A model generated the notes under the pieces. The model was not told where the DNA came from and searched no databases. It worked only from the letters and a program-made list of their open reading frames with translations. Positions 28,349 to 51,633 of a stretch of DNA of 64,000 nucleotides are shown one piece after another. Location: positions 124,001 through 188,000 of the forward strand of contig JBECUI020000032.1 of NCBI GenBank assembly GCA_040954595.2. The letters run 5' to 3'. Within the stretch, counting starts at the first letter, position 1; every line of letters begins with the position of its first letter. The position numbers and the translations under genes are program-made. The DNA is from Balanoglossus misakiensis. Its lineage: Eukaryota > Animalia > Hemichordata.

Positions 28349-28486
28349 AACCTTACTCCTTTTGATTCTTATTATAATAACAGGACCTCAATCTCCTTTA
28401 AATAAATGCATTGCTTTCTTAACGACAACATCCATTACCTTAGTCACTATTTTATGCCCCAATTCTATGCCTAATAATAAAACAGC

Positions 28487-32380: not shown

Positions 32381-32500
32381 TTAGGGGTAACGAGAGGGGT
32401 AGGCGGGAGAGCTAACTGACTGATCGGAGTTGTTCCACTCAATGGTTCCCGTGTAGCAGCCTGGGATTTGGAATTCGGCTAGGGTGACAATGCTGCCTGA
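32381..32500 (-). pseudogene. Remnant C-terminus of a GLUG lipoprotein paralog
   Basis: Translates as GSIVTLAEFQIPGCYTGTIEWN...PAY, compared with GSPVTLSQLKTPSWYTATLGWD...PAY in the intact paralog. Confidence 0.5.
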
Positions 32501-32793
32501 TAAGTGGGGTATCATGGAAAGTGAAGCTACACATAGCTGTCGTTGCCCCTTATGAAAGCTTCCAACCGACCAAAAAACCTGTGTTGTTATTGACAGGGAT
32601 ACCCACCTGATCAGTCCAGAATCCCTATTGTTCCAGCTATGGTGTTTTTTGAAGTATTTTTCTTTTTGAGATGGCTCATGGGAAAACCTTTAAGTTCTTT
32701 AGGCGGGGGGAATACGGACTCAAGGCCTGTGGATTTGGCTTGGAGTGCTCAAGCAGACTTGGGGAATTCAGGGAGCGTGACCCTAAGGAGAAT

Positions 32794-32870
32794 CCCCTGC
32801 GTCAGGGATTGGAGGGGCGCCGGAGGCGGTCCGATAGGACCGTAGCCCCGCAAAGCCCGCCCGGACGCCC
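32794..32870 (+). repeat. GC-rich palindromic REP/MITE-like element, copy 1
   Basis: CCCCTGCGTCAGGGATTGGAGGGGCGCCG...AAAGCCCGCCCGGACGCCC, near-identical to 48850-48927. Confidence 0.85.
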
Positions 32871-32954
32871 AGAAAAGAAGAAGTTACTGCATTTTTGATA
32901 CTGCGATATTTCTGTAGAAGAAACATCCCGCTTTTACATGTAAGTGAGGAGAAG

Positions 32955-33050
32955 TTAGTTGGGTTGGTGGGCTGGCCCAGAACTTCTATGCTTGCTCCGA
33001 TTTGAAGTGTATGGGGGTGCTAGGAAGGAGTGGCGTTGATAAGACCAGAA
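32955..33050 (-). pseudogene. Remnant 3' end of a paralog of the 29578-32046 gene
   Basis: Nucleotide similarity to about 29580-29680 (GGGCTG.CCC.G.AC.TCT.TGCTTG...TATGGGGGTG.TAGG). Confidence 0.5.
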
Positions 33051-33200
33051 AGTTGCCAATCGGTGGTGGAGCAATTTAGCTTACCAAATCCTCCAGAAAA
33101 AGGCCCAGAAAAGAAGAAGTTACTGTATTAAGGGCAAGGAATCTGCTTTATCAAGCAGAATCCACTTCTGCCGGAGTAACGTGCAAGCTAAGAAATGAAC

Positions 33201-33776
33201 TTAGGGAAGGGAGCTGCTGAGCTGATCGGGAAAGTCTGGGACCTGAGGGGCGTAGGGGATTTCCCTCTACCCGATGTCGATGAGACAAGAGTTTATGGGC
33301 CAAGCAACACAATAACCCACAAAAAACTTCCTTAATGCTGTGGTTCTTACCATCAAAGCTCCCAGCATATCCGCCGCTTTGGTAGGTTCCAGCTTCGTCA
33401 GGAGTTCCACGAACCAGGGGGGGGGTAAGTTCTCATTATTGCTAAGGTCGTCGCTATCGTAGGGGGCATCCATAAACCTGTTGTTGTCGGCGTCAGCAAA
33501 GTTGAGATCCAACCTTCACTCATAGTTCCAGCTAGGACTAGAGTTTTAAAAGGCTTCCCTGGCTATGGCCACAACCGATTTGCCCTGAATGTCAGAGGGA
33601 ATTGTCAGTAAGGTGATCCCTTGGCTTGCCAGGCCTGTTATGGTGATTCCCCCGCCTTCGTTCTGTTAGGTGATTGTTCCGAATGTATGGGTAACGGTGA
33701 GATTGCTGCAGGAAGTCATCATATAAAGGGCCAAGAGCACAATGCCGACTGCTATGAGAAAAGCTTTCCTACGCAT
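33201..33776 (-). pseudogene. Internally deleted LRR/GLUG lipoprotein pseudogene
   Basis: AAGGAG plus ATG 33776: MRRKAFLIAVGIVLLALYMMTSC...ITITGL...TIPSDIQGKSVVAIAREAF*NSSPSWNYE*RLDLNFADAD; in-frame stops and large deletions. Confidence 0.75.
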
Positions 33777-33986
33777 GCTTTAAAACTCCTTTATCCCCTC
33801 TTGAAGGTAATCAAAAAACTCAAGGAAAATGATGGAATAAGGCAAACAGTCACTCGATTTAGGGCCCTATGGGTCCAGAAGCCCCCAAAGACCCTCCCAG
33901 GTGGGCCCGGGAATGAGGAACTCCAGGGGAAATGGTGATTGAAGATAAAAACAGCCCCCTTCCGTAAAGACGGGGTAGCTTGATGG

Positions 33987-36384
33987 CTAGGGGGTTGGCA
34001 GGGGGGTGTCGGGCTGGCCGGGAAAGTTGTTGATGTGGGGGTGGTAGGCGGGACTGCCGTCCACCCGGCCTTCAATGACCCAATCGTTGGCGGACCAGCC
34101 TAGCCTGCCAGTGTTGGTCCCGGTGTACCAGCTTGGGGTTTTTAGTTGATCCAGGCTGACGGTGCTGCCTAGGGTGCTGGGTGTAGGGTGGGCATTGCCG
34201 TCAGGGGCCGTGATACTCTGATTCGCATAGCGGTAGCTGTTCGTTATGGTTCCTGGGGCACGAATAGTTCCAACCAAACCACCCACCTGGGTGGTGTCTC
34301 TCTGACCCAAGACATTCCCTGTAGCATAGCTATTCGTTAGGGTACCTCCATCGAGGAATCCTATCAAACCACCTACCTGAGAACCCTGCCCCGAGACATC
34401 TCCAGTAGCATAGCTGCCTGTTATGTGAGCAGTGAGCTGTCCAACCAAACCACCCACGTACTTATCCTGCCCCGAGACATCTCCAGTGGCATAGCTGCCT
34501 GTTATGCTACTAGCTATACTATTGTAGCTTCCTACCAAACCACCCACGCCGCTCCCTTGCCCCGAGACATCTCCGGTGGAATAGCTATCCCTTATGCTAC
34601 CGCCGCTGGACCCAGCCAAGCCTCCCACGTGACTCCCCTGCCCCGAGACATCTCCGGTGGAATAGCTATCCCTTATGCTACCGCCGCTGGACCCAGCCAA
34701 GCCTCCCACGTTATTTCCCTGTCCCGAGACATCTCCGGTGGAATAGCTATCCCTTATGCTGCCGCTGCTGGACCCAGTCAAGCCACCCACGCTGCTGCTA
34801 CCCGTGACAGAAGCCGCAGCATAGCTACCGCTTATGGTAGCCCAGGAGCGCCCGACCAAAGCACCCACATCGCGGTACCCCAAAACAGAGCCCCCAATCA
34901 GTCCCAGATCCTTTATCTCACTTCCACCAGTAACCGTGGCCCCGAAAAAACCAACTCCATCGGCTTCAGGAGTTGTGACGGTCATTCCCTCGATACTGTG
35001 GTTTTTACCATCAAAGTTCCCAGCATATCCACCGCTTAGGTAGTTGCCATCGTCGTCATAAGTCCAGGGCTAAGAGGGGTCCAGTTTCCGTTGTCGGCAT
35101 CATCGTCGCTGTCGAAGGGGTCATCCCTGATCCCATCGTTGTCGGCGTCAGCGAAGTTGAGGTCCATGCTTAGCTCGTAGTTCCAGTTATCGGGGTAGTT
35201 TTCCGTATCCACTCCGATTTTGGCCAGTTCACTCAGGCGGTGGATGTACTGCTTGCCATCGGCGGTGGGGATGAGGGGGGTGGTGTAACGGTATTCAGCG
35301 CTGCCGTCGCTGAGCTGGGCATGCAGGTAGTAGGCGGTCTCGGTTACTGACCCCGCTGAGTTCCACTGTCTGAGGGCCGGGGCTGCCTGTAAAGGAAACC
35401 TTCTTGACCATGATGTTTAAAGCCTGGTCGGTGAAGGCTTGGAGTTCTGCTTCTAGTCCTAGGGGAACGCCAACTTCACCATGATTTTTCCAGAACGGGG
35501 ACGGCATCGGTAATGACGATGCCATGGGGAGAGTAAGGATTAGGAAGCGTTATCCAATCCGTGGAGGCCTCCGGGAGACCTGATTCCCTTTGGCCCGCAG
35601 GCGGTAGGAGGTACCGTCGGTCAGGCCAGTCAAGCTTATCTCCTGGGATGTTGTTGCCGTCGGTTCGGAACAGCTGTTGCGGTAGCTTCACTGCTAAAGT
35701 CAGCTTCGGTGTGAGCTTCAACGGTAATGCCTAACGCCGGGTAGGGGCTTGAGGGTGATGATGAGGCTTTGGTAAGCCTGTCTTATGTTTTCAATGATAG
35801 CGGGGTCCAAGGCCCGTTCCGGACCGCCGAAGCCGCTCCAGAGGCCTTCAGTGTAGCCTGTTGTTTCTCCGATGGGGTAAAGGAGGGTGATCCCGGTCAA
35901 GGGGGCAGGAAAGGCCTCGGCGGGGCTGCCTATAAAGCTGGGGGCCTTGGGGGCCAGGATGGTCAGCTTGTTGAGAGCCGTTCCGGCGAAGGCCAGATTG
36001 CCGATGGAGGTGATACCGTTACCTATCTGCACTTCGCTCAAGGAGGCAGCTGAGTTGAAGGCCTCGTCTCCTATAGTTGTGACGCTGTTGGGAATATTTA
36101 TGCTGGTGAGGGTAGAGTTTTTAAAGGCTGCCTCGGCTATGGCCGTAACGGGCTTGTTGTGAATAAAAGAGGGTATGCTGAGGTCGGTGATGTCTCGTCT
36201 TGCCAGACCAGTTATAGTGATTTCCTGCCTTCGTCCTGGTAGGTAAGTGCGTCGAAACTAAGGGGGGCAGTAGGGTTGCTGCAGGAAGTTATCAGGTAGA
36301 ACACAAAAAGGAAAAAACCAACTTTGGCGGCTAGGGTTCCTCTATGTTGTCTTACGCGGGGAGAGGGTGAGTATCTAAATTCAT
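33987..36384 (-). pseudogene. Array copy A: LRR/Fn3-like/GLUG lipoprotein with 8 GLUG modules, frameshifted as assembled
   Basis: ATG 36384 after AAGGAG, lipobox ITSC; fragments 35718-36041, 35476-35721, 35295-35525, 33987-34985 are homologous to 45846-48746. Confidence 0.8.
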
Positions 36385-36416
36385 ATGTTGGATCTCCTTA
36401 CAAACTTGATTGGCCT

Positions 36417-36445
36417 ATCATATAGTAGGACTACGTTCTTGTCAA
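36417..36445 (-). promoter_or_regulatory. Sigma70-like promoter of copy A
   Basis: TTGACA-N17-TATGAT, with the -10 box about 32 bp upstream of the ATG. Confidence 0.7.
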
Positions 36446-36629
36446 AGCTTTGCCATAGCCTAAAAGCTTTGCCATAGGTAAAAGACTTTTGATTGAGCAG
36501 TGATATTGAATAATGACACTACGCTTCTAAAGTTTATTGCGTTTTAGAGGGAAAGCCAAGTTTTTTGGAATTATTCTCTGTTTTTTGGGGAAGACTTCGG
36601 GGTTGGGGCGGCGATGGAGAGGTCCAGGG

Positions 36630-37145
36630 GGGCTGGTTTGGGGAGATGAGCCTTCCAAGGCCCGCACGGACTGCGGGCCTTGGAGGGCGGGATTGCTGGT
36701 AGAGGCATCATCCCGCATTTGCGGGGGTGATGGCTAGGGGGGTGGTAGGGGGGGTGTCGGGCTGGCCGGGGAAGTTGGTGATGTGGGGCTGGTTGGGGGA
36801 GATTAGCCTTCCAAGGCCCGCACGGACTGCGGGGCTTGGAGGGCGGGATTGCTGGTAGAGGCATCATCCCCGCATTTGCGGGGGTGATGGCTAGGGGGTT
36901 GGCAGGGGGGTGTCGGGCTGGCCGGGGAAGTTGGTGATGTGGGGTGGTAGGCGGGGGTCGGGCTGGCCGAGGAAGTTGGTGATGTGGGGCTGGTTGGGGG
37001 AGATTAGCCTTCCAAGGCCCGCACGGACTGCGGGGATTGGAGGGCGGGATTGCTGGTAGAGGCATCATCCCCGCATTTGCGGGGGTGATGGCTAGGGGGT
37101 TGGTAGGGGGGTGTCGGGCTGGCCGGGGAAGTTGGTGATGTGGGG
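36630..37145. repeat. Triplicated ~155-bp unit (gene 3' end plus double hairpin)
   Basis: Three copies of GCCTTCCAAGGCCCGCACGGACTGCGGG...GGCATCATCCC(C)GCATTTGCGGGGGTGATGGCTAGGGG...GGAAGTTGGTGATGTGGGG, plus a ~40-bp partial copy. Confidence 0.85.
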
Positions 37146-39681
37146 GTGGTAGGCGGGACTGCCGTCCACCCGGCCTTCAATGACCCAATCGTTGACGGAC
37201 CAGCCTAGCTTGCCAATTTCGGTTCCGGTGTACCAGCTTGGGGTTTTTAGTTGATCCAGGCTGACGGTGCTGCCTAGGGTGCTGGGGTAGGGTGGCATTG
37301 CCGTCAGGGGCCGTGATACTCTGATTCGCATAGCGGTAGCTGTTCGTTATGGTGCCAGAAAAGGATGCTCCGACCAAACCACCCACCTGGGTGGAGGCAC
37401 TCTTCCCCACGACATTCCCTGTAGCATAGCTATTCGTTAGGGTACCTCCATCGAGGAATCCTATCAAACCACCCACACTAAAGGACCCCGAGACATCTCC
37501 AGTAGCATAGCTGCCTGTTATGCTAGCAGAGCTGTGCCCGGCCAAACCACCCACAGCATCGTTCCCCGAGACATCTCCAGTAGCATAGCTGCCTGTTATG
37601 CTAGCAGAGCTGTGCCCGGCCAAGCCGCCCACGTTGCTGCTACCCGTGACAGAACCCGTGGCATAGCTGCCTGTTATGCTAGCAGTGCTGAGCCCAGCCA
37701 AGCCGCCGACATACCCCTGACCCGAGACAACCCCAGTGGCATAGCTCTCTGTTATGACCCCACTATTTTCTCCAACCAAACCACCCACGTGACGCCCCTG
37801 CCCCGAGACATCTCCAGTGGCATAGCTAGCCCTTATGCTACCACCGCTGTACCCAGCCAAGCCTCCCACGTAACTCCCCTGCCCCGAGACATCTCCGGTG
37901 GAATAGCTATCCCTTATGCTGCCGCTGCTGGACCCAGCCAAGCCACCCACGTTGCTGCTACCCGTGACAGAACCCGTGGTATAGCTGCCTGTTATGGTTC
38001 CACCCGATACTCCAGCCAAACCACCAACGCTTCTGCTACCCGTGACAGAACCCGTAGCATAGCTGCCTATAATCTCTCCCTCGTTATACCCAACCAAACT
38101 ACCTACGTTAGAATTACCCGAGAAAGAGCCACCCAGCAGTGCCAGATCCTTAATTTGACCTCCAGCAAGCATAAAATTAAAAAACCGACTCTATTAGCTA
38201 AAGGTGTCGTGACGGTCATTCCCTCGATACTGTGGTTTTTACCATCAAAGTTCCCAGCATATCCACCGCTTAGGTAGTTTCCATCGTCGTCATAAGTTCC
38301 AGGGCTAAGAGGGGTCCAGTTTCCGTTGTCGGCATCATCGTCGCTGTCGAAGGGGTCATCCCTGATCCCGTCGTTGTCAGCGTCAGCGAAGTTGAGGTCC
38401 ATGCTTAGCTCGTAGTTCCAGTTATCGGGGTAGTTTTCCGTATCCACTCCGATTTTGGCCAGTTCGCTTAGGCGGTGGATGTACTGCTTGCCGTCGGCGG
38501 TGGGGATGAGGGGAGTGAATAGCGGTATTCAGCGCTGCCGTCGCTGAGCTGGGCACGCAGGTAGTAGAGCCTTTCATTGCTGACCCCGCTGAGTTCCACT
38601 GTCTGAGGGCCGGGGCTGCCTGTAAAGGAAACCTTCTTGACCATGATGCTTAAAGCCTGGTCGGTGAAGGCCTGGAGTTCTGCTTCTAGTCCTAGGGGAG
38701 CGTCAACTTCAACCATGATTTTTCCAGAACGGGGAACGGCATCGGTAATGGCGATGCCATAGGGAGAGTAAGGATTAGGAAGCGTTATCCAATCCGTGAA
38801 GGCCTCCGGGGAGACCTGGCTCCCTTTGGCCCGCAGGTGGTAGGAGGTACCGTCGGTCAGGCCAGTCAGGCTTATCTCCTGGGATGTTGTTGCCGTCGGT
38901 TCGGAAACTGCTGTTGCGGTGGTAGAGCCAGCTTCGGTGAGAGCTTCTACGGTAATGCTAACGCCGGGTAGGGGCTTGAGGGTGATAATGAGGCTTTGGT
39001 AAGCCTGTCTTATGTTTTCAATGACAGAGGGGTCCAAGGCCCGTTCTGGACCGCCAAAGCCGCTCCAGGGGGCTTCAGTGTAGCCTGTTGTTTCTCCGAT
39101 GGGGTAAAGGAGGGTGATCCCGGTCAAGGGGGCGGGAAAGGCCTCGGGAGGACTGCCTATAAAGCTGGGGGCCCTGGGGGCCAGGACGGTGAGTTTATTA
39201 AGGGCCGTTCCGGCGAAGGCCAGATTGCCGATGGAGGTGATACCGTTACCTATCTGCACTTCGCTCAAGGAGGCAGCTGAGTTGAAGGCCTCGTCTCCTA
39301 TAGTCCGTGACGCTGTTGGGAATATTTATGCTGGTGAGGGTAGAGTTTTTAAAGGCTGCCTCGGCTATGGGCCCGTAACGGGCTTGTTTATAAATGAAAG
39401 AGGTATGCTGAGGTCGGTGCTCTCTCGTCTTGCCAGACCAGTTATAGTGATTCCCTGCCTTCGTCCTGGTAGGTAAGTGCGTCGAAACTAGGGGGGCGGT
39501 GAGGTTGCTGCAGGAAGTTATCAGGTAGAAAACGAAAGGGAAAGACCAACTTTAGTGGCTAGGGTTTTTCTATGCTGTCTTACGCGGGGAAGTGAGTGAG
39601 TGAGTGAGTGAGTGAGTGAGTGAGTGAGTGAGTGAGTGAGTGAGTGAGTGAGTGAGTGAGTGAGTTGGTAAATAAATTCAT
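37092..39681 (-). pseudogene. Array copy B: LRR/Fn3-like/GLUG lipoprotein with 10 modules and (ACTC)18, out of frame as assembled
   Basis: ATG 39681 after AAGGAG; fragments 38468-39268, 38103-38447, 37177-38172, 37092-37331. Confidence 0.8.
39594..39665 (+). repeat. (GAGT)18 tract, read as (ACTC)18 on the coding strand of copy B
   Basis: 72 nt of perfect repeat beginning 16 nt after the first base of the ATG. Confidence 0.95.
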
Positions 39682-39713
39682 ATGCTGGATCTCCTTACAA
39701 ATTTGATTGGTCT

Positions 39714-39742
39714 ACCCTATCGTAGTTATTCTTTTTTGTCAA
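39714..39742 (-). promoter_or_regulatory. Sigma70-like promoter of copy B
   Basis: TTGACA-N17-TAGGGT. Confidence 0.55.
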
Positions 39743-40013
39743 GTCTTTGCCATAGGTAAAAGACTTTTTGATTGAGCAGTGATCTTGAATAAGGACACTA
39801 CGCTTCTAAAGCTTATGACGTTTTAGAGGGAATGCCAAGTTTTTTGGAATTATTTTCTGTTTTTGGGAAGACTTCAGGGTTGGGGTGGCGAGGGAGGGGT
39901 CCAGAGGGGGCTGGTTTGGGGAGATGAGCCTTACAAAGGCCCGCACGGACTGCGGGGCTTGGAGGGCAGGATTGCTGATAGAGGCATCATCCCCGCATTT
40001 GCGGGGGTGATGG

Positions 40014-42640
40014 CTAGGGGGTTGGCAGGGGGGTGTCGGGCTGGCCGGGGAAGTTGGTGATGTGGGGGTGGTAGGGGGGGCTGCCGTTCACCCGGCCTTC
40101 AATAATCCACTTGTCGGCGGCCCAGCCTAAGTTGCCGGTGTCGGTGTACCAGCTTGGGGTTTTTAGTTGATCCAGGCTGACGGTGCTGCCAGAGGTGTTG
40201 GGTGTAGCCTGGGCATTGCCGTCAGGGTCTGTGAAACTCTGATTCACATAGCGGTAGCTGTTGGTTATGGTGCCTGTATCAATTAGTCCTATCAAACCAC
40301 CCAGGTCGGCCCCTTGCCCCGAGACATTCCCAGTGGCATAGCTGTTTGTTATGCTACCAAAGTTGTGATGACCGACCAAACCACCCACGATGTTCCCTTG
40401 CCCCGAGAGATCCCCAGTGGCATAGCTGTTCTCTATGCTGCCTGTGTTGTATCCCACCAAGCCGCCCAACGCATTGCTGACCCCGAAACAGTACCGGTGG
40501 CATAGCTGTTTGTTATGGAACTAGCATTGCCTCCAAACCAAACCACCCACTTGATCGTCCCCCGAGACATCTCCAGTGGCATAGCTGTCGACATCTCCAG
40601 TGGCATAGCTGTCTGTTATGGTAGCACGGGCTCTGTCCAACCAAACCACCCACGCTGTCCTCCTGACCCGAGACATCTCCAGTGGCATAGCTGCCTGTTA
40701 TGGCAAAACCAATGTTGTTTCCAACCAAACCACCCACACCACCGAGCCCCGAAACAGTACCAGTGGCATAGCTGTCTGTTATGGGACCAATTTTGAGTCC
40801 GACCAAAACCACCTACACTGCTACTCTGCCCTGATACATTCCCGGTGGCATAGCTGCTCGTTATGCTGCCCATTTGCCCGCTGGATCCAACCAAACCACC
40901 CACGTAGTCCCCCTGACCCGAGACATCTCCAGTGGTATAGCTAGCCCTTATACTGCCGTTGCTGTACCCAGCCAAGCCTCCCACATACTCCTGCCCCGTG
41001 ACAGAAGCCGTAGCATAGCTGCCTATAATCTCTCCCTCGTTATCCCCAACCAAACTACCTACGAAAGAATTACCCGAGAAAGAGCCACCCAGCAGTTCCA
41101 GATCCTTAATTTGACCTCCAGCAACCGTGGTCCCCAAAAAACCGACTCTATTAGCTAAAGGTGTCGTGACGGTCATTCCCTCGATACTGTGGTTTTTACC
41201 ATCAAAACTCCCAGCATATCCACCGCTTAGGTAGTTGCCATCGTCGTCATAAGTTCCAGGGCTAAGAGGGGTCCAGTTTCCGTTGTCGGCATTGTTGTCG
41301 CTGTCAAAGGGGTCATTCTTAACCCCGTCGTTGTCGGCGTCGGCGAAGTGGAGGTTGCTTTTTAATTCGTAGTTCCAGTTATCGGGGTAGTTTTCACTAT
41401 CCACGCCGATTTTGGCCAGTTCGCTTAGGCGGTGGATGTACTGCTTGCCGTCGGCGGTGGGGATGAGGGGAGTGGAATAGCGGTATTCAGCGCTGCCGTC
41501 GCTGAGCAGGGCACGCAGGTAGTAGGGCCTTTCATTGCTGACCCCGCTGAGTTCCACTGTCTGAGGGCCGGGGCTGCCTGTAAAGGAAACCTTCTTGACC
41601 ATGATGCTTAAAGCCTGGTCGGTGAAGGCCTGGAGTTCTGCTTCTAGTCCTAGGGGAACGCCAACTTCAACCGTGATTTTTCCAGAACGGGGAACGGCAT
41701 CGGTAATGGCGATGCCATGGGGAGAGTAAGGATTAGGAAGCGTTATCCAATCCGTGGAGGCCTCCGGGGAGACCTGATTCCTTTGGCCCGCAGGCGGTAG
41801 GAGGTACCGTCGGTCAGGCCAGTCAGGCTTATCTCCTGGGATGTTGTTGCCGTCGGTTCGGAAACTGCTGTTGCGGTGGTAGATCCAGCTTCGGTGCGAG
41901 CTTCTACGGTAATGCTAACGCCGGGTAGGGGCTTGAGGGTGATGATGAGGCTTTGGTAAGCCTGTCTTATGTTTTCAATGACAGAGGGGTCCAAGGCCCG
42001 TTCCGGACCGCCGAAGCCGCTCCAGGGGGCTTCAGTGTAGCCTGTTGTTTCTCCGATGGGGTAAAGGAGGGTGATCCCGGTCAAGGAGGCGGGAAAGGCC
42101 TCGGCGGGGCTGCCTGTAAAGCTGGGGGCCCTGGGGGCCAGGACGGTGAGTTTATTAAGGGCCGTTCCGGCGAAGGCCAGATTGCCGATGGAGGTGTACC
42201 GTTACCTATCTGCACTTCGCTCAAGGAGGCAGCTGAGTTGAAGGCCTCGTCTCCTATAGTCGTGACGCTGTTGGGAATATTTATGCTGGTGAGAATGGAG
42301 TTTTTAAAGGCTGCCTCGGCTATGGCCGTAACGGGCTTGTTATAAATGAAAGAGGGTATGCTGAGGTCGGTGCTGTCTCGTCTTGCCAGACCAGTTATAG
42401 TGATTTCCCTGCCTTCGTCCTGGTAGGTAAGTGCGTCGAAACTAGGGGGGGCGGTGAGGTTGCTGCAGGAAGTTATCAGGTAGAAAACGAAAAGGGAAAG
42501 ACCAACTTTAGTGGCTAGGGTTTTTCTATGCTGTCTTACGCGGGGAAGTGGGAAGTGAGTGAGTGAGTGAGTGAGTGAGTGAGTGAGTGAGTGAGTGAGT
42601 GAGTGAGTGAGTGAGTGAGTGAGTTGGTAAATAAATTCAT
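40014..42640 (-). pseudogene. Array copy C: LRR/Fn3-like/GLUG lipoprotein with about 10 modules and (ACTC)17, out of frame as assembled
   Basis: ATG 42640 after AAGGAG; fragments 41743-42084, 40616-41602, 40513-40812, 40014-40469. Confidence 0.8.
42557..42624 (+). repeat. (GAGT)17 tract in copy C with an adjacent 7-bp GGGAAGT duplication
   Basis: 68 nt of perfect repeat, counted directly. Confidence 0.95.
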
Positions 42641-42672
42641 ATGCTGGATCTCCTTACAAATTTGATTGGTTT

Positions 42673-42701
42673 ATCCTATCGTAGTTATTCTTTTTTGTCA
42701 A
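42673..42701 (-). promoter_or_regulatory. Sigma70-like promoter of copy C
   Basis: TTGACA-N17-TAGGAT. Confidence 0.6.
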
Positions 42702-42973
42702 GTCTTTGCCATAGGTAAAAGACTTTTTGATTGAGCAGTGATATTGAATAATGACACTACGCTTCTAAAGCTTATTTGCTTTTTAGAGGGAAAACCAAAT
42801 TTTTTGGAATTATTTTCTGTTTTGGGGAAGACTTCGGGGTTGGGGTGGCGATGGAGAGGTCCAGGGGGGGGCAGGTTGGGGGAGATGAGCCTTACAAGGC
42901 CCGCACGGACTGCGGGGCTTGGAGGGCGGGATTGCTGGTAGAGGCATCATCCCCGCATTTGCGGGGGTGATGG

Positions 42974-45514
42974 CTAGGGGGTTGGTAGGGGGGTGTCGGG
43001 CTGGCCGGGGAAGTTGGTGATGTGGGGGTGGTAGGGGGGGCTGCCGTTCACCCGGCCTTCAATAATCCACTTGTCGGCGGCCCAGCCTAAGTTGCCGGTG
43101 TCGGTGTACCAGCTTGGGGTTTTTAGTTGATCCAGGCTGACGGTGCTGCCAGAGGTGTTGGGTGTAGCCTGGGCATTGCCGTCAGGGTCTGTGAAACTCT
43201 GATTCACATAGCGGTAGCTGTTGGTTATGGTGCCTGTATCAATTAGTCCTATCAAACCACCCAGGTCGGCCCCTTGCCCCGAGACATTCCCAGTGGCATA
43301 GCTGTTTGTTATGCTACCGAAGTTGTGATTACCGACCAAACCACCCACGATGTTCCCTTGCCCCGAGAGATCCCCAGTGGCATAGCTGTTCTCTATGCTG
43401 CCTGAGTTGACTCCCGCCAAGCCGCCCAACTCGTCGCTGACCCCCGAAACAGTACCGGTGGCATAGCTAGCCCTTATGCTGCTGGTGGTGTCTCCAACCA
43501 AACCACCCACTTGTGTCCCCTGACCCGAGACATCCCCAGTGGCATAGCTACCGCTTATGGTAGCCCAGGAGCGCCCCGACCAAACCACCCACACTACCGT
43601 CCCCCGAGACATCTCCAGTGGCATAGCTGTCTGTTATGGGAGCAAGGGTACGTCCGACCAAACCACCTACAAGGTCTCTCTGCCCTGAGACATTCCCGGT
43701 GGCATAGCTGCTCGTTATGCTGCCCCTTCTCCAGCTGAGTCCAACCAAACCACCCACGAAGACCCCTACATTGTTGCCCCCATGACCTGATACATCTCCA
43801 GTGGCATAGCTAGCCCTTATACTGCCGTTGCTGTACCCAGCCAAGCCTCCCACATACTCCTGCCCCGTGGCAGAAGCCGTAGAATAGCTGCCTATAATCT
43901 CTCCCTTGTTATCCCCAACCAAACTACCTACGTTAGAATTACCCGAGAAAGAGCCACCCAGCAGTGCCAGATCCTTAATTTGACCTCCAGCAACCATCAA
44001 ATTAAAAAAAACCGACTCTATTAGCTAAAGGTGTCGTGACGGTCATTCCCTCGATACTGTGGTTTTTACCATCAAAACTCCCACCATACCCACCGCTTAG
44101 GTAGTTTCCATCGTCGTCATAAATTCCAGGCTAAGAGGGGTCCAGTTTCCGTTGTCGGCATCATCGTCGCTGTCGTAATGGTCGTTCATTACCCCATCGT
44201 TGTCAGCGTCGGCGAAGTTGAGTCCCATGCTTAGCTCGTAGTTCCAGTTATCGGGGTAGTTTTCACTATCCACTCCGATTTTGGCCAGTTCACTCAGGCG
44301 GTGGATGTACTGCTTGCCGTCGGCGGTGGGGATGAGGGGAGTGGAATAGCGGTATTCAGCGCTGCCGTCGCTGAGCTGGGCACGCAGGTAGTAGGCGGTC
44401 TCGTTACTGACCCCGCTGAGTTCCACTGTCTGAGGGGCGAGGCTGCCTGTAAAGGAAACCTGCTTGACCATGATGTTTAAAGCCTGGTCGGTGAAGGCCT
44501 GGAGTTCTGCTTCTAGTCCTAGGGAATGCCAACTTCAACCATGATTTTTCCAGAACGGGGAACGGCATCGGTAATGACGATGCCATGGGGAGAGTAAGGA
44601 TTAGGAAGCGTTATCCAATCCGTGGAGGCCTCCGGGGAGACCTGATTCCCTTTGGCCCGCAGGCGGTAGGAGGTACCGTCGGTCAGGCCAGTCAGGCTTA
44701 TCTCCTGGGATGTTGTTGCCGTCGGTTCGGAAACTGCTGTTGCGGTGGTAGATCCAGCTTCGGTGTGAGCTTCTACGGTAATGCTAACGCCGGGTAGGGG
44801 CTTGAGGTGATGATGAGGCTTTGGTAAGCCTGTCTTATATTTTCAATGACAGAGGGGTCCAAGGCCCGTTCTGGACCGCCGAAGCCGCTCCAGGGGGCTT
44901 CAGTGTAGCCTGTTGTTTCTCCCGATGGGGTAAAGGAGGGTGATCCCGGTCAAGGGGGCAGGAAAGGCCTCGGCGGGGCTGCCTATAAAGCTGGGGGCCC
45001 TTGGGGCCAGGATGCTTAGCTTGTTGAGGGCCGTTCCGGCGAAGGCCAGATTGCCGATGGAGGTGATACCGTTACCTATCTGCACTTCGCTCAAGGAGGC
45101 AGCTGAGTTGAAGGCCTCGTCTCCTATAGTCGTGACGCTGTTGGGAATATTTATGCTGGTGAGAATGGAGTTTTTAAAGGCTGCCTCGGCTATGGCCGTA
45201 ACGGGCTTGTTATAAATGAAAGAGGGTATGCTGAGGTCGGTGCTGTCTTGTCTTGCCAGACCAGTTATAGTGATTTCCCTGCCTTCGTCCTGGTAGGTAA
45301 GTGCGTCGAAACTAGGGGGGCGGTGAGGTTGCTGCAGGAAGTTATCAGGTAGAAAACGAAAAGGGAAAGACCAACTTTAGTGGCTAGGGTTTTTCTATGT
45401 TGTCTTACGCGGGGAAGTGAGTGAGTGAGTGAGTGAGTGAGTGAGTGAGTGAGTGAGTGAGTGAGTGAGTGAGTGAGTGAGTGAGTGAGTGAGTGAGTTG
45501 ATAGATAAATTCAT
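42974..45514 (-). pseudogene. Array copy D: LRR/Fn3-like/GLUG lipoprotein with about 9 modules and (ACTC)20, out of frame as assembled
   Basis: ATG 45514 after AAGGAG; fragments 44900-45094, 44097-44471, 43548-44000, 42974-43624. Confidence 0.8.
45419..45498 (+). repeat. (GAGT)20 tract in copy D
   Basis: 80 nt of perfect repeat, counted directly. Confidence 0.95.
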
Positions 45515-45546
45515 ATGCTGGATCTCCTTACAAATTTGATTGGTCT

Positions 45547-45574
45547 ATCCTATCGTAGGTATTCTTTTTGTCAA
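45547..45574 (-). promoter_or_regulatory. Sigma70-like promoter of copy D
   Basis: TTGACA-N16-TAGGAT. Confidence 0.55.
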
Positions 45575-45760
45575 GTCTTTTCTATAGGTAAAAGACTTTT
45601 TGATTGAGCAGTGATATTGAATAATGACACTACGCTTCTAAAGCTTATTGCGTTTTAGAGGGAATGCCAAGTTTTTTGGAATTATTTTCTGTTTTTGGGA
45701 AAGACTTCGGGGTTGGGGTGGCGATGGAGAGGTCCAGGGGGGGCAGGTTGGGGGAGATGA

Positions 45761-45844
45761 GCCTTCCAAGGCCCGCACGGACTGCGGGGCTTGGAGGGCG
45801 GGATTGCTGGTAGAGGCATCATTCCCGCATTTGCGGGGGTGATG
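45761..45844 (-). terminator. Double GC-rich hairpin after copy E, also present after B, C and D
   Basis: GCCTTCCAAGGCCCGCA-CGGAC-TGCGGGGCTTGGAGGGC and CATCATTCCCGCA-TT-TGCGGGGGTGATG directly after the stop; no U-tract, so function is uncertain. Confidence 0.45.
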
Positions 45845-45845
45845 G

Positions 45846-48746
45846 CTAGGGGGTTGGGAGGGGGGTGTTGGGTTGGTTGGGGAAGTTGGTGATGTGGGGG
45901 TGGTAGGGGGGGGTACCGTTCACCCGGCCTTCAATAATCCACTTGTCGGCGGCCCAGCCTAAGTTGCCGGTGTCGGTGTACCAGCTTGGGGTTTTTAGTT
46001 GATCCAGGCTGACGGTGCTGCCAGAGGTGTTGGGGTTGGCTTTGGCATTGCCGTCAGGGTCTGTGATACTCTGATTCGCATAGCGGTAGCTGTTGGTTAT
46101 GGTGCCTGTATTAATTAGTCCTATCAAACCACCCAGGTCGGCCCCTTGCCCCGAGACATTCCCAGTGGCATAGCTGTTTGTTATGCTACCAAAGTTGTGA
46201 TTACCGACCAAACCACCCACGATGTTCCCTTGCCCCGAGACATTCCCAGTGGCATAGCTGTTTGTTATGCTACCGCCGTTGTTCCCAGCCAAGCCTCCCA
46301 CATACCACCCCCACCCCGAGACATCCCCTGTGGCATAGCTGCCTGTTATGCTACCGCCGCCGTTGTCCCCAGCCAAGCCTCCCACGAGACCCCCCTGAGT
46401 CGAGGTGACAACCCCAGTGGAATAGCTATCATTTATGCTGCCGCTGCTGGACCCAGCCAAGCCTCCCACGAGACCCCCCTGAGTCGAGGTGACAACCCCA
46501 GTGGAATAGCTCTCTGTTATGACCCCACTATTGTATCCAACCAAACCACCCACTTTATTCCACTGACCTGAGACATCTCCGGTGGAATAGCTATCACTTA
46601 TGCTGCCGCTGCTGGACCCAGCCAAGCCACCAACCTCATCCCACTGACCCGTGACAGAACCCGTAGCATAGCTGCCTGTTATGGTTCCACCCGATACTCC
46701 AGCCAAGCCACCAACGCTGCTGTTACCCCTAACATCTCCGGTGGAATAGCTATCACTTATGCTGCCGCTGCTGGACCCAGCCAAGCCACCAACCTCATCC
46801 CCCTGACCCGTGACAGAACCCGTAGCATAGCTGCCTGTTATGGTTCCACCCGATACTCCAGCCAAGCCACCAACGCTGCTGTTACCCCTGACATCTCCGG
46901 TGGAATGGCTATCACTTATGCTGCCGCTGCTGGACCCAGCCAAGCCACCAACCTCATCCCCCTGACCCGTGACAGAACCCGTAGCATAGCTGCCTGTTAT
47001 GGTTCCACCCGATACTCCAGCCAAGCCACCAACGCTGCTGCTACCCCTGACATCTCCGGTGGAATGGCTATCACTTATGCTGCCGCTGCTGGACCCAGCC
47101 AAGCCACCAACCTCATCCCCCTGACCCGTGACATCTCCGGTGGAATAGCTATCACTTATGCTGCCGCTGCTGGACCCAGCCAAGCCACCAACCTCATCCC
47201 CCTGACCCGTGACAGAACCCGTAGCATAGCTGCCTATGATCTCTCCCTCGTTATACCCAATCAAGCTACCTACGTTAGAATTCCCCGAGAAAGAGCCACC
47301 CAGCAGTTCCAGATCCTTAATTTGACCTCCAGCAAGCATAAAATTAAAAAAACCGACTCTATTAGCTGAAGCTGTCGTGATGGTCAGTCCCTCGATACTG
47401 TGGTTTTTACCATCAAAGTTCCCAGCATATCCACCGCTTAGGTAGTTTCCATCGTCGTCATAAGTTCCAGGGCTAAGAGGGGTCCAGTTTCCGTTGTCGG
47501 CATCATCGTCGCTGTCAAAGGGGTCATCCCTGATCCCGTCGTTGTTCGCGTCAGCGAAGTTGAGGTCCATGCTTAGCTCGTAGTTCCAGTTATCGGGGTA
47601 GTTTTCACTATCCACTCCGATTTTGGCCAGTTCACTCAGGCGGTGGATGTACTGCTTGCCATTGGCGGTGGGAATAAGGGGAGTGGAATAGCGGTATTCA
47701 GCGCTGCCGTCGCTGAGTAGGGCCCGCAGGTAGTAGGTGATTTCATTGCTGAGTCCGTCTATTTCCACCGTTGGAGAGTCGGGGTTAATTGTAAAGAAGA
47801 CTTCTTTGACCATCATGCTAAAATCCTTGTCGCTGAATGCCTGGAGTTTTGCTTCCATTTCTTCTGAGGCTCTTACTTCAGCAATAATTTTCCCTGTACG
47901 GGGGGTAGCATCGGCAATAAAGATACCGTGGGGTTTGTAGGGAGTGAGAAGTGGCACCCAGGCGCTGGGGGTGCCTGGAAAATTTTGGTATCCTCTGACC
48001 CGCAGATGGTAGAAGGTCCCTTCGCTAAGACCAGTCAGGGTTATCTCCTGGGTTGTCGTTGCCCTTGGGTTTGATTTTGCCGTTGCAACGGCATCGCCGG
48101 TGAAGTCGGCTTCTGTGTGGGCTTCTACGGTCAAGGTAGCGCCGTATAGGGGCTTGAGGCTGATGATGAGCTTTTGAAAACCCGTAGTTATTTTTTCAAT
48201 GACACTGGATCCCAGGAGAGGGATATGGCGACCGAAGTACCTCCAGGGGGCTCTGTCGTAACCTGTGCTCCCCAAAGGGTAAACCAGGGAGATTTCTCTT
48301 AGGGGAATGGGGAGGATTCCCTCAAGGGGAAAGCCTATGATCCTGGGGGCCTCTGGGGCCAGGATGGTGAGTGTGTTTAGGGATGTACCGGTAAAGGCTA
48401 GACTGCCTATCGATTTAATGCCGTTTCCTATCTGTACTTCGCTTAGGGAGGCAGATAAGTAAAAGGCTTCGTTTCCTATGGTAGTTACGCTGTCGGGAAT
48501 GCTTACCCTGCTAAGGGCAGTACCTCTAAAGGCTGCCCTGGCTATGGCGGTAACAGGCTTGTTGTGAATGAACGAAGGGATTGTTATGACGGTGCTGTTT
48601 TGGTTTACCAGACCAGTTATGGTGATTGTGCTACCTTCGTCCCGATGGGTGAACTCTCCGAGGTTGGGAGGGGCAGAGGGGTCGGCACAGGAAATTAGAA
48701 GGTAACAGAAAAAGTGTAAAATTCCGAAAACTTTGGGACACTTCAT
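45846..48746 (-). CDS. Array copy E: intact 966-aa surface lipoprotein with BspA-type LRR, Fn3-like domains and 15 GLUG-type modules
   Basis: Lipobox LISC; IPDSVTTIGNEAF; LTGLSEGTFYHLRV; FDGKNHSIEGL; (S/A)TG.V.G..VGGL(A/V)G repeats; no ACTC tract. Confidence 0.9.
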   Translation of the reverse strand: MKCPKVFGILHFFCYLLISCADPSAPPNLGEFTHRDEGSTITITGLVNQNSTVITIPSFIHNKPVTAIARAAFRGTALSRVSIPDSVTTIGNEAFYLSASLSEVQIGNGIKSIGSLAFTGTSLNTLTILAPEAPRIIGFPLEGILPIPLREISLVYPLGSTGYDRAPWRYFGRHIPLLGSSVIEKITTGFQKLIISLKPLYGATLTVEAHTEADFTGDAVATAKSNPRATTTQEITLTGLSEGTFYHLRVRGYQNFPGTPSAWVPLLTPYKPHGIFIADATPRTGKIIAEVRASEEMEAKLQAFSDKDFSMMVKEVFFTINPDSPTVEIDGLSNEITYYLRALLSDGSAEYRYSTPLIPTANGKQYIHRLSELAKIGVDSENYPDNWNYELSMDLNFADANNDGIRDDPFDSDDDADNGNWTPLSPGTYDDDGNYLSGGYAGNFDGKNHSIEGLTITTASANRVGFFNFMLAGGQIKDLELLGGSFSGNSNVGSLIGYNEGEIIGSYATGSVTGQGDEVGGLAGSSSGSISDSYSTGDVTGQGDEVGGLAGSSSGSISDSHSTGDVRGSSSVGGLAGVSGGTITGSYATGSVTGQGDEVGGLAGSSSGSISDSHSTGDVRGNSSVGGLAGVSGGTITGSYATGSVTGQGDEVGGLAGSSSGSISDSYSTGDVRGNSSVGGLAGVSGGTITGSYATGSVTGQWDEVGGLAGSSSGSISDSYSTGDVSGQWNKVGGLVGYNSGVITESYSTGVVTSTQGGLVGGLAGSSSGSINDSYSTGVVTSTQGGLVGGLAGDNGGGSITGSYATGDVSGWGWYVGGLAGNNGGSITNSYATGNVSGQGNIVGGLVGNHNFGSITNSYATGNVSGQGADLGGLIGLINTGTITNSYRYANQSITDPDGNAKANPNTSGSTVSLDQLKTPSWYTDTGNLGWAADKWIIEGRVNGTPPYHPHITNFPNQPNTPLPTP

Positions 48747-48849
48747 ACTTCATACTTTATCACTTGAGATGAAATAAAACCAGAGTAATGGCAATGTCTG
48801 CTCTTAACTCATAAGGAGGATTGGGAGATTTTAGGGGAACGGAAGAGGG

Positions 48850-48927
48850 CCCCTGCGTCAGGGATTGGAGGGGCGCCGAAGGCGGTCCGGCAGGACCGTT
48901 AGCCCCGGAAAGCCCGCCCGGACGCCC
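48850..48927 (+). repeat. GC-rich palindromic REP/MITE-like element, copy 2
   Basis: Direct repeat of 32794-32870 with few differences. Confidence 0.85.
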
Positions 48928-48977
48928 TAAAAAAGCTTGCCTATCGTGGGGTAAGAAGGAGCGTTCAGCTCTGAGGG

Positions 48978-50222
48978 CTAAAATCCCCTTTCTCTTTGCA
49001 TTTCCCGTTCTCGACGGGAATTTTTTACTTTTTCCATTTTCCGGTAGTAGTCGGAAGATTTTTTAATTTCCAGAACGTCGGAGGCATAGAGCCAGTTGCC
49101 TGTTATCTGAAGGTCCTTGTTTCCCATTAGTTTGGCTAGGGAGACTTTGCCTTCGGCTTTGGAAAGGCCTACCATGTTGATCAATTCGTTGGGCCCAAAG
49201 CCAAAGGTGTGGGCTTGGCGGGATGAAAGGTCTACCCGAGATTTCTCCAGTTCCAGGACAAGACGGTCATAAAGACGACCGACGGGATCTTCTATAAGGG
49301 CGTTGCCAAGCTGCCTGTTAAGAATCCATACCCTTTCGGCTAGCAAGACGGTCAGCCTGGAGATGACTTTGGGTTGATCCACGACCATGGCTTTGAAGTT
49401 GCTCCGACTTACGGCCATCATTACCGATTCTTCGTGGGCAATGGCTGAGGCACTGCGAGGTTTATTTTCTAAGAGGGCCATTTCTCCGAAGATGTCTCCA
49501 GGTTTGAGCAGGGCTAGCAGGACTTCGTTGTTGTCGACAATTTTGGTAATCCTAATGCTGCCTTTCTGGATAATATAGAGTTCTGGACCGGATTCTCCTT
49601 CGGAAAAAATCATGGTGTTCTTGGGGTAGGTGCGGATAAAGTCTGAAGAATTGGGGATGTCAAGGTTGGCTACGGTGGCATAGGGTTTGATTTTTTTCAT
49701 TCTCTCCTTGGCTACGGCAAGGTTGGTGCCAGTGGGGTTGGCTTGGCAGTATTTGTAATAGGCGTAGTAAGCTTGGTTAAATTGATTCTGCCGGGCATAG
49801 TACTCAGCGACGTTGAAGAGATGACGTTCGTCTATTTCTGCCGAACTTTTAAAGGTTATGCGAGTGAGGGCTTCGTCTAAACTTCTTACCAGCCGAGAAA
49901 AGTTGTTGATCATTTTCATGGCCACAGGAGTGTTGCGCTCGATTAACAAAGGATACTGGTGTGGGCGAACAGCAATAAAGGTGCAGTCTACTAAAGCCAG
50001 TGCAGTGTCAATGTGACTATGATTGGACATGGTGGAGACTACGCCAAAAAAATCTCCAGGCTTAAGAAGGTTGGAATCCCTTTCTTCGGGAATTTCCAAT
50101 TCCTTCTCAATCCTTACCCTGCCTGAGCGAATAATATAGAACTGGGTCGCATGTTTCCCCTCAATGGTAATATACGCTCCCTTATTGTATTTCACCAAAT
50201 CCAGTTGGAGGGGGTTCGGCAT
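48978..50222 (-). CDS. Tandem cyclic-nucleotide-binding domain protein (Crp-like, central TPR)
   Basis: Two cNMP domains (LKPGDFFG; LKPGDIFGEMALLENKPRSASA) and a TPR-like linker. Confidence 0.88.
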   Translation of the reverse strand: MPNPLQLDLVKYNKGAYITIEGKHATQFYIIRSGRVRIEKELEIPEERDSNLLKPGDFFGVVSTMSNHSHIDTALALVDCTFIAVRPHQYPLLIERNTPVAMKMINNFSRLVRSLDEALTRITFKSSAEIDERHLFNVAEYYARQNQFNQAYYAYYKYCQANPTGTNLAVAKERMKKIKPYATVANLDIPNSSDFIRTYPKNTMIFSEGESGPELYIIQKGSIRITKIVDNNEVLLALLKPGDIFGEMALLENKPRSASAIAHEESVMMAVSRSNFKAMVVDQPKVISRLTVLLAERVWILNRQLGNALIEDPVGRLYDRLVLELEKSRVDLSSRQAHTFGFGPNELINMVGLSKAEGKVSLAKLMGNKDLQITGNWLYASDVLEIKKSSDYYRKMEKVKNSRREREMQRERGF

Positions 50223-50316
50223 GATGCCTCCTATAATTACAAGCTTATTTTAGAGATGACAGAGAGAAACGTCAAGATCACATAAAACATAAACTTCTGC
50301 ATGTGGTTTTTCCTGC

Positions 50317-51633
50317 TCACAAAAAACTATTCCCAAATTCCTCATAGATGGGAAATCGGTCACAAAGCCTTTTTACTTCTACCTCGATGCCTTTAAGGAT
50401 CTTTCTATCACCACCACTCTTAAGAGCATCGATCATATAACGGGCAATCACTTCCATTTCCTGGATGCCCATGCCTCTAGTGGTAACAGCGGGCGTTCCA
50501 ATTCTAATGCCCGAGGTGATTTGGGGCGGAAGGGGATCAAAGGGAATGATGTTCTTGTTCACTGTCATTCCAGCAAATTCCAACCAGGTTTCCGCTTCTT
50601 TTCCCGTAATTGCCAAGGGGCTAAGGTCCAAGAGAAGCAGATGATTGTCCGTGCCTCCTGTTATCACCCGAATATTCCCTGTAATTAAAATTTTAGCTAG
50701 ATTCTTCGCATTTTCCAAGACCTTTTTCTGATAAACAGCAAATTTATCTTCAGCTGCTTCTTTTAGGGCCAGGGCCTTGGCGGCAATAATGTGCATGAGG
50801 GGACCGCCTTGTATTCCAGGAAAAACGGCGCTGTCGATGAGTTCTCCAATTCTCTTCATTCTGCCGGACTTGGGGGCAGTAATACCCATGTCGTTTTCTC
50901 TATCCTGGCCTACAAGGATCATGCCTCCGCGGGGGCCTCTAAGGGTTTTGTGGGTCGTGGTTGTAACGATGGCTGCATGGGGGATGGGAGAAGGATGGAG
51001 CCCTGTGGCAACAAGGCCAGCAATGTGGGCCATGTCGACAATCAAAAGGGCTCCGGCTTCATCGGCAATTTCCCGGAATTTAGCAAAGTCTATGCTGCGG
51101 GGATAAGCTGAGGCTCCAGCCAGAATGACCCGGGGCTTCATTTTCAGGGCCATTTGCCGCAGTTCGCCGTAATCTATGGTTTCAGTCTCTCTGTTGACTC
51201 CATAACTTGTCGCTTTGTAAAGTTTGCCGGAAAAATTGACATGGGAGCCGTGGGTCAAATGACCTCCATGGGCCAGGTTCATGCCTAAAATAAGGTCCCC
51301 AGGGGTCATGACGGCAGCATAAGCCCCCATGTTGGCCTGACTCCCTGAGTGAGGCTGGACATTGGCGTACTGGGCCTCAAAGAGCTTCTTTGCTCTTCTC
51401 TGGGCACATGCTTCCACCTCATCCATATGTTGACAGCCGCCGTAATAGCGCTTTGAAGGGTAACCTTCGGCATACTTGTTGGTAAAAACCGAACCGGCAA
51501 GTTCCATTACAGCTGGAGAAACCAGGTTCTCTGAGGCAATAAGCTCTAAACAATTTCTCTGACGATTCAATTCCTTGGCCAGGATGGCATGAATTTCAGG
51601 ATCGTATGAGGCGAGGCTCTCTATCGATGGCAT
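50317..51633 (-). CDS. glyA: Serine hydroxymethyltransferase
   Basis: [37 protein letters not shown]. Confidence 0.97.

Follow-up and report, generated by a model that had tools for sequence, protein, structure and literature searches.

Recombination among the paralogous genes of phase-variable surface proteins is well known in bacteria. In Chlamydia, the Pmp proteins form a surface paralogue family whose passenger is a beta-helix of short Gly-rich repeats, some members being switched by simple sequence repeats (SSRs) or homopolymers. In vlsE of Borrelia and tprK of Treponema pallidum, variable regions change by non-reciprocal recombination with homologous DNA located nearby; these two genes, together with pilE/pilS, represent expression-site/cassette systems, and such systems are known in spirochaetes. 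In Neisseria Opa, a pentamer repeat lies in the leader-peptide coding region. Here, we describe a tandem array of five genes for repeat-bearing lipoproteins, named A to E, on a 64,000-nt stretch (hereafter, the window) of contig JBECUI020000032.1, assembly GCA_040954595.2. The copies are patchworks of one another, and recombination between them is well supported by comparison of their sequences, through abrupt changes of nearest relative along the genes, conflicting partition trees and a significant recombination test.

As in Opa, a short non-triplet repeat in the leader-peptide coding region would set the reading frame of several of these genes. The available parts of two sources (PMC13183285, PMC3745409) also describe Opa as a family of several paralogous loci in which an invariant scaffold bears two hypervariable loops at the surface, recombination among the loci reshuffles the alleles, and the majority of loci are out of frame at a given moment, and the available part of the first (PMC13183285) gives Opa as an example of recombining paralogous phase-variable surface genes. 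In contrast to Opa, which is a small beta-barrel, porin-like protein encoded at scattered loci, the genes described here are in tandem and combine leucine-rich repeat (LRR) and Fn3 domains with a GLUG solenoid in a lipoprotein, the slipping repeat is a tetramer, variation is found in every coil, and the data come from a single assembly. With Pmp and other beta-helical adhesins, the array shares paralogous beta-helix surface proteins with members switched by frameshift, but Pmp proteins are autotransporters with GGA(I,L,V) and FxxN motifs, whereas here no autotransporter barrel is present and lipid anchoring is predicted. Like vlsE and tprK, these are spirochaete surface antigen candidates with variation drawn from homologous DNA nearby; unlike them, with their one expression site and promoterless cassettes, the array consists of complete gene units, and over most of its variable part the intact copy does not resemble the other four. 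The mechanism is textbook, and what is new here is the gene family, its undescribed spirochaete host and the coil-level view of the variable GLUG positions. Large surface proteins with GLUG repeats number in the thousands (a GLUG profile search gave 7648 of 7993 candidates at E <= 0.001), but the literature on these repeats is sparse, most of the titles listed for the word "GLUG" using it in another meaning.

Five tandem copies and their coils

The array occupies 33.9–48.9 kb of the minus strand as five head-to-tail units of ~2.9 kb each. Every copy encodes a lipoprotein made of BspA-type LRR and Fn3-like domains followed by a GLUG array. The features of the locus are:

33987–36384, minus strand: copy A, ATG at 36384, without CTCA tract; GLUG array at 34239–34904, 1 + 7 modules
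37095–39681, minus strand: copy B, ATG at 39681; GLUG array at 37342–38142, 1 + 9 modules, all in frame
40014–42640, minus strand: copy C, ATG at 42640; GLUG array at 40260–41098, 1 + 9 modules, with C3, C5, C7 and C8 frameshifted
42974–45514, minus strand: copy D, ATG at 45514; GLUG array at 43220–43967, 1 + 8 modules, with D4 frameshifted
45846–48746, minus strand: copy E, 966 aa, without CTCA tract; GLUG array at 46092–47309, 1 + 14 modules
29578–32046, minus strand: paralogue F, an intact 822-aa lipoprotein with LRR_5, Fn3-like domains, 4–5 GLUG coils and the same tail
33154–33534, minus strand: decayed remnant of a further family copy between F and A, the D-rich linker only, 75% identical to nt 1359–1556 of E
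36571–37157, minus strand: tandem triplication between B and A, period 156/201 bp, 95–96% matches

Paralogue F, which adjoins A, is an outlying and more distant sixth member, 37–48% identical to E along its whole length. The triplicated unit between B and A consists of the last ~45 nt of the gene plus a hairpin-rich downstream region. Copy E is the sole intact open frame among the five; copies A and B each carry ~8 indels in the 5' half, those of A being frame-breaking, and B also shows a 2-nt loss in its tail. The earlier note needs correction here: as assembled, the frame is open only in E (and F), and A to D proved to be broken by many indels of one or two bases. Within the arrays, E includes a two-module unit of 159 bp repeated 3.5 times at 98%, and C carries at 40566–40613 a perfect 24-bp tandem duplication within the scaffold that produces an in-frame SYATGDVD stub.

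A search with nhmmer, using a DNA profile built from the modules of E, gave 57 matches in the window: 15 in E, 9 in D, 11 in C, 10 in B, 8 in A and 4 in F, those of E being one cryptic first module plus 14 and those of C being 1 + 9 plus the stub of 21–24 nt. These numbers agree with the counts of the earlier note (A 8, B 10, C about 10, D about 9, E 15). When cut at each AGCTAT, the arrays separate into units of 78–102 nt; the coils have 26–31 residues, typically 27.

The peptides which that note had listed as shared between copies were searched for exactly in all six frames of the window; all of them were found, solely in the copies named and with zero matches on the plus strand. RSWATISGSYA is present only in A and D, FLDGGTLTNSY and NDWVIEGRVDG only in A and B, NSGVITESY and FFNFMLAGG only in B and E, QEYVGGLAGYSNGSIRASY only in C and D, and HNFGSITNSY and WAADKW only in C, D and E, whereas VSGGTITGSY is found at one place in B and at three in E. 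At the DNA level, shared modules are 0.86–1.00 identical vs ~0.70–0.78 for unrelated modules; therefore, the sharing is not due to chance.

Probable exchange between the copies

The patchwork of A to E was probably produced by homologous recombination between the copies, comprising both gene conversion and unequal crossing-over. Private differences of E from A–D amount to 292 of 1026 sites (28%) up to alignment column 1960 (~47720) and to 14 of 484 (3%) beyond it (Fisher 2.5e-38), its identity to A–D shifting at this point from 68% to ~92–95%; a further shift, at ~46240, takes its identity to C and D from at most 80% to 96–99%. Copy A shows the reverse pattern, with 26 private differences in 1363 sites followed by 51 in 147 (35%) from column 2300 (Fisher 1.2e-36), this private stretch being the cap and the first module, from ~34978 downstream to 34827. 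Pairwise identities among A–D are 0.933–0.972 in the 5' kilobase, where A and B are the least alike pair (0.933), and yet the same two copies are the most alike in columns 1960–2300 (0.970) and in the tail (0.955). Partition trees conflict accordingly along the gene: the 5' part gives an unresolved star of A–D with E on a branch of 0.75, columns 1960–2300 give a nested E with a branch of 0.035, and the tail gives an AB|CDE split with 100/100 support.

Recombination was also evaluated with the pairwise homoplasy index (PHI) test that the earlier note had named, in our own implementation. It was significant for the 5' part plus tail of the five copies (p = 0.0002) and for A–D alone (p = 0.0004), with 48–64% of the informative site pairs incompatible, and for the 39 distinct modules it gave p = 0.0003 at both w = 5 and w = 10. 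The marks by which gene conversion was judged were thus all found, namely sudden switches of nearest relative (Fisher 1e-36 to 1e-38), a significant PHI and conflicting partition trees, and the statement that sharing is not tree-like was borne out by the breaks at ~47720, ~46240 and ~34978.

At the level of coils, the arrays of A and B are collinear (A1=B2, A2/A3=B3, A6=B8, A7=B9), as are those of C and D (C1=D1, C2~D2, C3=D3, C8=D6, C9=D7, C10=D8). Copy B joins two kinds of modules, B1 and B4 in common with E and B2, B3, B8 and B9 in common with A. Modules E1 to E12 are at most 0.87 identical to any module of the other copies, the early types being common to B and A at 0.85–0.87, and the last two modules of E and its tail match C/D at 0.96–0.99 (C9/D7/E13, 0.96–0.98; C10/D8/E14, 0.99–1.00). 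In a maximum-likelihood tree of 47 modules, those of one type cluster together whichever gene they come from, with 28 label changes vs a shuffled mean of 28.1; the coil types must therefore predate the copies as they now stand. Within single genes, concerted evolution is confined to the recent 159-bp expansion of E and to B5–B7.

A single history of whole-gene duplication, with loss and gain of coils, uneven rates and no exchange, seems highly improbable to us, even if the distribution of most module types agrees with ((A,B),(C,D),E), those restricted to B and E could be losses in A and in C/D, and a conserved scaffold with variable turns is typical of any solenoid repeat. Such a history would need E to evolve ~10x faster than A–D over 1 kb and then at an equal rate from one column onwards, and A to do the reverse over 150 bp. 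It also fits poorly with the changing rank of the A–B pair, with the PHI results, with a synonymous divergence among A–D of 0.05–0.12 upstream vs 0.15–0.28 in columns 1960–2300, and with an exact 35-nt match, out of register, which links the first module of A to D4. The module tree that the earlier note proposed as a check thus goes only part of the way: its grouping does cross genes, but the single history is excluded by the identity breaks and branch lengths and not by the presence or absence of types.

Chimeras were also detected below the size of a module. B1 has its first 27 nt of E1 type and the remainder of E3 type; E10 combines an E11-type body with a second loop of the E1/A1/B2 type, and E2 is similar. 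Exact off-register matches of 30–37 nt run across coil junctions. Under recombination between copies, unequal exchange at coil junctions would have changed the number of coils (8 to 15, including the 159-bp expansion of E and the 24-bp duplication of C), and longer conversion tracts would have shifted whole blocks, E13–E14 and the tail coming from a C/D-type copy and the pre-repeat part of E from an A–D-type copy; the first module of A would come from a donor outside the array. The loops would change mostly by point substitution and small indels, being re-sorted by recombination only occasionally. No diversity-generating retroelement or site-specific recombinase was found among the 49 open reading frames (ORFs) of the window that were scanned with Pfam or NCBIfam, a set that does not include every ORF.

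To locate the variation within the coil, entropy was calculated over 39 distinct modules, drawn from 42 in-frame modules among a total of 48 (C3, C5, C7, C8, D4 and the C6 stub were left out). Maxima were found at the 2–3 residues that precede VGG (2.9–3.6 bits) and at the 3–4 residues that follow GGLxG (2.1–3.3 bits), and changes of length sit at the same two places, whereas S1, G23, G24, L25 and G27 are invariant. The two loop positions to which the earlier note had assigned the variation are therefore its peaks, but not its only sites, since variation is also seen at positions 6 and 39. No change was found in the scaffold codons AGC-TAT, TTG and ATA (39/39, 37/37, 39/39 and 37/37 distinct modules), although in 18 of the window's housekeeping genes the same four codons have a share of only 17, 56, 15 and 23% within their families. 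This favours some constraint at the DNA level, and it is an unexplained oddity.

The further proposal that scaffold DNA provides the crossover points by which conversion diversifies the loops fares less well. The switch at the E12/E13 junction does fall in scaffold DNA, but breaks can be mapped only to identical stretches, which makes the test near-circular, and the same pattern of conservation would also be expected from the ordinary constraints of a solenoid. Conversion as the source of loop diversity is poorly supported, since long shared tracts mostly homogenise the copies and for most loop differences the array offers no donor (see below). Comparison of homologous modules pair by pair gave 48.2 nonsynonymous vs 7.8 synonymous differences in loop codons, a pN/pS of 1.42, and a pN/pS of 0.41 in the scaffold. 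Read most simply, the loops would owe their changes mainly to substitutions and small indels, with selection on them either relaxed or diversifying, and recombination would chiefly move or homogenise larger blocks and alter the number of coils.

Several observations weigh against recombination as the author of the patchwork, or against its reach. For around 40 of 47 clusters of loop differences (each with at least three differences between homologous modules), no exact donor exists in the whole array, and several of the remaining ones are trivial, matching only E's own recent duplicates, which speaks against shuffling as the chief origin of diverse loops. The pairs behind the pN/pS of 1.42 share modules, and its excess over 1 is without statistical support. 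Synonymous third positions of scaffold Gly, Thr and Val vary freely, so that identity tracts between unrelated coils are mostly short. PHI reached only p = 0.05 for the 5' part of all five copies and 0.06 for the modules at w = 15, in a test which rate heterogeneity and linked sites within codons may inflate, and, taken by itself, the distribution of module types among the copies could be reconciled with ((A,B),(C,D),E) by assuming losses. As assembled, A–D carry ~30 frame-breaking indels and out-of-frame CTCA tracts, and possibly no protein is made from them. The assembly is of doubtful quality in this region, the copies being known from contigs and their order not being bridged by a single read. 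Finally, these are five sequences from one assembly with no relatives found, from which direction, timing and ongoing activity of the exchange are not inferable.

Reading frames, short-read contigs and CTCA tracts

The indels of A–D are nearly all a gain or loss of one base in a homopolymer. In the 5' halves of these copies, dN/dS is 0.3–0.6, no nonsense substitution is present in ~430 codons, and the ratio of indels to substitutions is very high. In addition, copy-specific contigs restore the frame at 38178 in B (runs X1 and X2) and at 36223 in A (X2, depth 2.4). Real decay of A–D is disfavoured on these four grounds, and we lean towards consensus errors in poorly polished stretches as the origin of the frameshifts. 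The indels at 35342, 38516 and 35668 are contradicted too, by contigs that possibly derive from other copies. The reads used here are Logan contigs of the short-read runs X1 and X2, which cannot link copies and keep the majority path; contradictions were counted only where the contig was copy-specific, a contig that agreed with an indel was given no weight, and uncovered bins (in X1, 36156–36469 and 39296–39452) were not taken as evidence.

Uniform sequencing error as the cause of all the frameshifts was considered and found not convincing, as homopolymer content is even over the window (0.08–0.10) and the frameshifts cluster in A–D and in one ABC operon, the housekeeping genes that were checked having open frames. 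The operon in question (24300–28400, minus strand), encoding the binding protein and two permeases of a sugar ABC transporter, is split by frameshifts into at least 8 ORF pieces. It is unrepeated in the window, and either decay or a locally poor assembly, both of which bear on the frameshifts of A–D, may account for its state.

Contigs at 98% likeness or more cover 27 of the 30 bins of 34900–39600, in copies A and B. Two B-specific contigs, of 109 and 123 nt, match 38142–38265 with no other letters and reproduce a succession of C/D-like, E-like and D-like patches, and one of 1190 nt (47688–48877) extends 32 nt past the break in E. Other joints between copies in the contigs have short sides or extra letters, and they are most simply explained as other family members or graph paths.

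Contigs of X1 and X2 on 32500–50500 also contain coils with scaffold on both sides and loops that are absent from the 64-kb window, even with up to 3 substitutions allowed. The sample therefore contains further family members or strain variants, and the family is therefore larger than the array.

We regard it as quite unlikely that the array is an artefact, that is, a chimera of strains or paralogues built by a long-read metagenome assembler, with mosaics that do not exist on one molecule. The runs do look metagenome- or host-like, with 1.9 million contigs and a unique depth of ~6–9x around the array, and the module variants absent from the window, the ~30 homopolymer indels and their contradiction by contigs, two of them copy-specific and three perhaps from other copies, would all be expected from such a process. 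However, errors at the base level cannot place 1-kb blocks that diverge by 30% beside others that diverge by 3%, and the contigs reproduce copy-specific sequence, the patch in B and the 5' junction of E. The order of the units may still be chimeric. In addition, the units are regular, each with ribosome-binding site, ATG and tail, plus the promoter-like sites of C and D.

The state of the frames also bears on an arrangement in which E would be the expressed gene and A–D donor pseudogenes that rewrite it by programmed conversion, as in the cassette systems mentioned above. That the organism is a spirochaete, that only E is open, with A–D frameshifted and out of frame at the CTCA tract, and that E13–E14 with the tail, as well as the 500 bp of E preceding the repeats, are near-identical to A–D-type sequence speak for it; even so, we consider it very unlikely. 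Copies A–D are full-length, with AAGGAG ribosome-binding site, ATG and signal peptide, and with promoter-like sites in C and D, instead of being donors without promoter or start; their dN/dS is 0.3–0.6 and they lack nonsense substitutions; at least 2 of their frameshifts are absent from the reads; and E1–E12, at no more than 0.87 identity to any A–D module, lack the identity to donors that only E13, E14 and the tail show.

Three of the copies carry tetranucleotide tracts next to the start codon:

39593–39664, minus strand: (CTCA)18 of copy B, within the ORF and ahead of the signal peptide; first unit 17 nt downstream of the ATG; assembled out of frame
42556–42623, minus strand: (CTCA)17 of copy C, within the ORF; first unit 17 nt downstream of the ATG; assembled out of frame
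45418–45497, minus strand: (CTCA)20 of copy D, within the ORF; first unit 17 nt downstream of the ATG; assembled out of frame
45574–45547, minus strand: promoter-like TTGACA-16-TAGGAT of copy D, from the promoter scan

The distance from the ATG to the signal-peptide codon, modulo 3, is 1 in D and 2 in both C and B, so that a change of one CTCA unit would restore the frame in each of the three, in which no other in-frame start codon exists downstream of the ATG. The layout is that of an SSR contingency locus, in which a non-triplet tract separates the start codon from the rest of the coding sequence, and B, C and D are predicted to be phase-variable through (CTCA)n slippage, with on/off translation. 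Short-read contigs break at all three tracts. Copy A has lost its tract and is out of frame, and E, with a different 5' end, has none. An AAGGAG ribosome-binding site precedes the ATG in each of A–D, and the promoter scan detected TTGACA-16/17-TAGGAT sites upstream of C and D.

Beyond recombination as such, these elements may together form a working contingency system, in which 3–4 promoter-bearing copies would be switched independently by (CTCA)n slippage while coil recombination re-tiles two exposed turns of the solenoid, also with family members elsewhere in the genome. We put this forward tentatively, as an idea rather unlikely to hold in full. If true, a clonal population would display many combinations of binding or antigenic surfaces, an Opa-like strategy on a solenoid and outside the classical pathogens. 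In any case, the array offers a natural contrast, within one genome, between coil positions that tolerate change (the turns flanking VGGLxG) and those that do not, it shows coil number and coil blocks moving between paralogues, and, with its tetranucleotide tracts in the leader peptide, it suggests contingency-locus biology in an uncultured Spirochaetaceae lineage without sequenced relatives.

Predicted fold, family and host

Lipoprotein-type signal peptides with a lipobox Cys (LLISC, LITSC, FLAGC) were recognised by eye in all copies, the sequences being MKCPKVFGILHFFCYLLISC in E, ..KVGLSLFVFYLITSC in A–D and ..FLILFLAGC in F. Pfam matches on E comprise GLUG (2.2e-51, 169 bits, 7 stretches), LRR_5 (1.1e-12) and a weak match to fn3. 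The gathering cut-off of GLUG (PF07581, 20.5 bits) is passed by E (169), B (146), A (115) and F (64), and that of LRR_5 (PF13306, BspA-type, 27.7 bits) by E (48.4) and F (47.3).

Residues 436–966 of E were modelled with AlphaFold2 (AF2) as a beta-solenoid on a 34-row alignment (predicted local distance difference test score, pLDDT, 90.8; predicted template modelling score, pTM, 0.89), the single-sequence model being poor (pLDDT 55.6). In each 27-aa coil, strands are assigned to SIx, YA, xVxG, VG and xGxx, and the non-strand parts are QGxx before VGG and the turn after GGLxGxx. The variable residues are thus predicted to lie in the two turns flanking the VGGLxG strand, in agreement with the beta-solenoid which the earlier note had expected; the single face that the note saw as the site of diversification would be a putative one.

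The best Foldseek rows for this model are a putative IgA1 protease of Bacteroides (3n6z) and the beta-helix of the IgA1 protease of S. pneumoniae, with probability 1.00 and weak E-values (5e-3 to 0.1), followed by other right-handed beta-helices; a phmmer search of the Protein Data Bank (PDB) sequences gave 0 matches. From the AF2 model and these weak matches, the GLUG repeats are predicted to stack as a beta-solenoid or beta-helix. The likeness to the GLUG/IgA1-protease-type beta-helix (PF07581; 3n6z, 6xja, 7jgj) lies in the Pfam match and the best structural rows, whereas, unlike those proteins, the copies described here have no peptidase domain. The repeats of 3n6z are linked to GLUG in the available part of the ConSole paper (PMC4021314).

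Searches for relatives of the family were negative at several levels. None were found by a search of genome contigs with E as a query, nor in metagenome contigs with the 266-aa ORF of B and a 3-row alignment of the linker as queries. Residues 150–470 of E, compared by phmmer with 1.84 billion representatives, gave 62 matches at E <= 0.001, the best at 34% identity, and no relative of the family. Among the matches listed, 0 of 120 GLUG proteins had LRR_5 and 0 of 120 LRR_5 proteins had GLUG (PF07581 x PF13306). The LRR_5-Fn3-GLUG lipoprotein family appears to be new, without relatives in the collections searched.

The array lies among ordinary chromosomal genes, encoding ArgJ, ClpP, Era, a class I lysyl-tRNA synthetase (LysRS), serine hydroxymethyltransferase (SHMT), Lon and sugar ABC transporters. 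All named matches of Lon belong to Spirochaetales, Spirochaetaceae or Spirochaetota, and none of the collected proteins is more than 75% identical to it, so that the genes must come from a spirochaete not yet described. The best relative of the SHMT gene, which adjoins the array, is 59% identical. A further neighbour is

12978–14573, minus strand: lysyl-tRNA synthetase, class I (archaeal) type, TIGR00467, 557 bits

and a class I LysRS fits a spirochaete. In such a host, which would probably be host-associated itself, the protein would act as a surface adhesin-like molecule. At 55780–56298 of the minus strand, one ORF matches PliI, the periplasmic inhibitor of I-type (invertebrate-type) lysozyme (Pfam E = 6e-30), which hints that the spirochaete lives with an invertebrate host.

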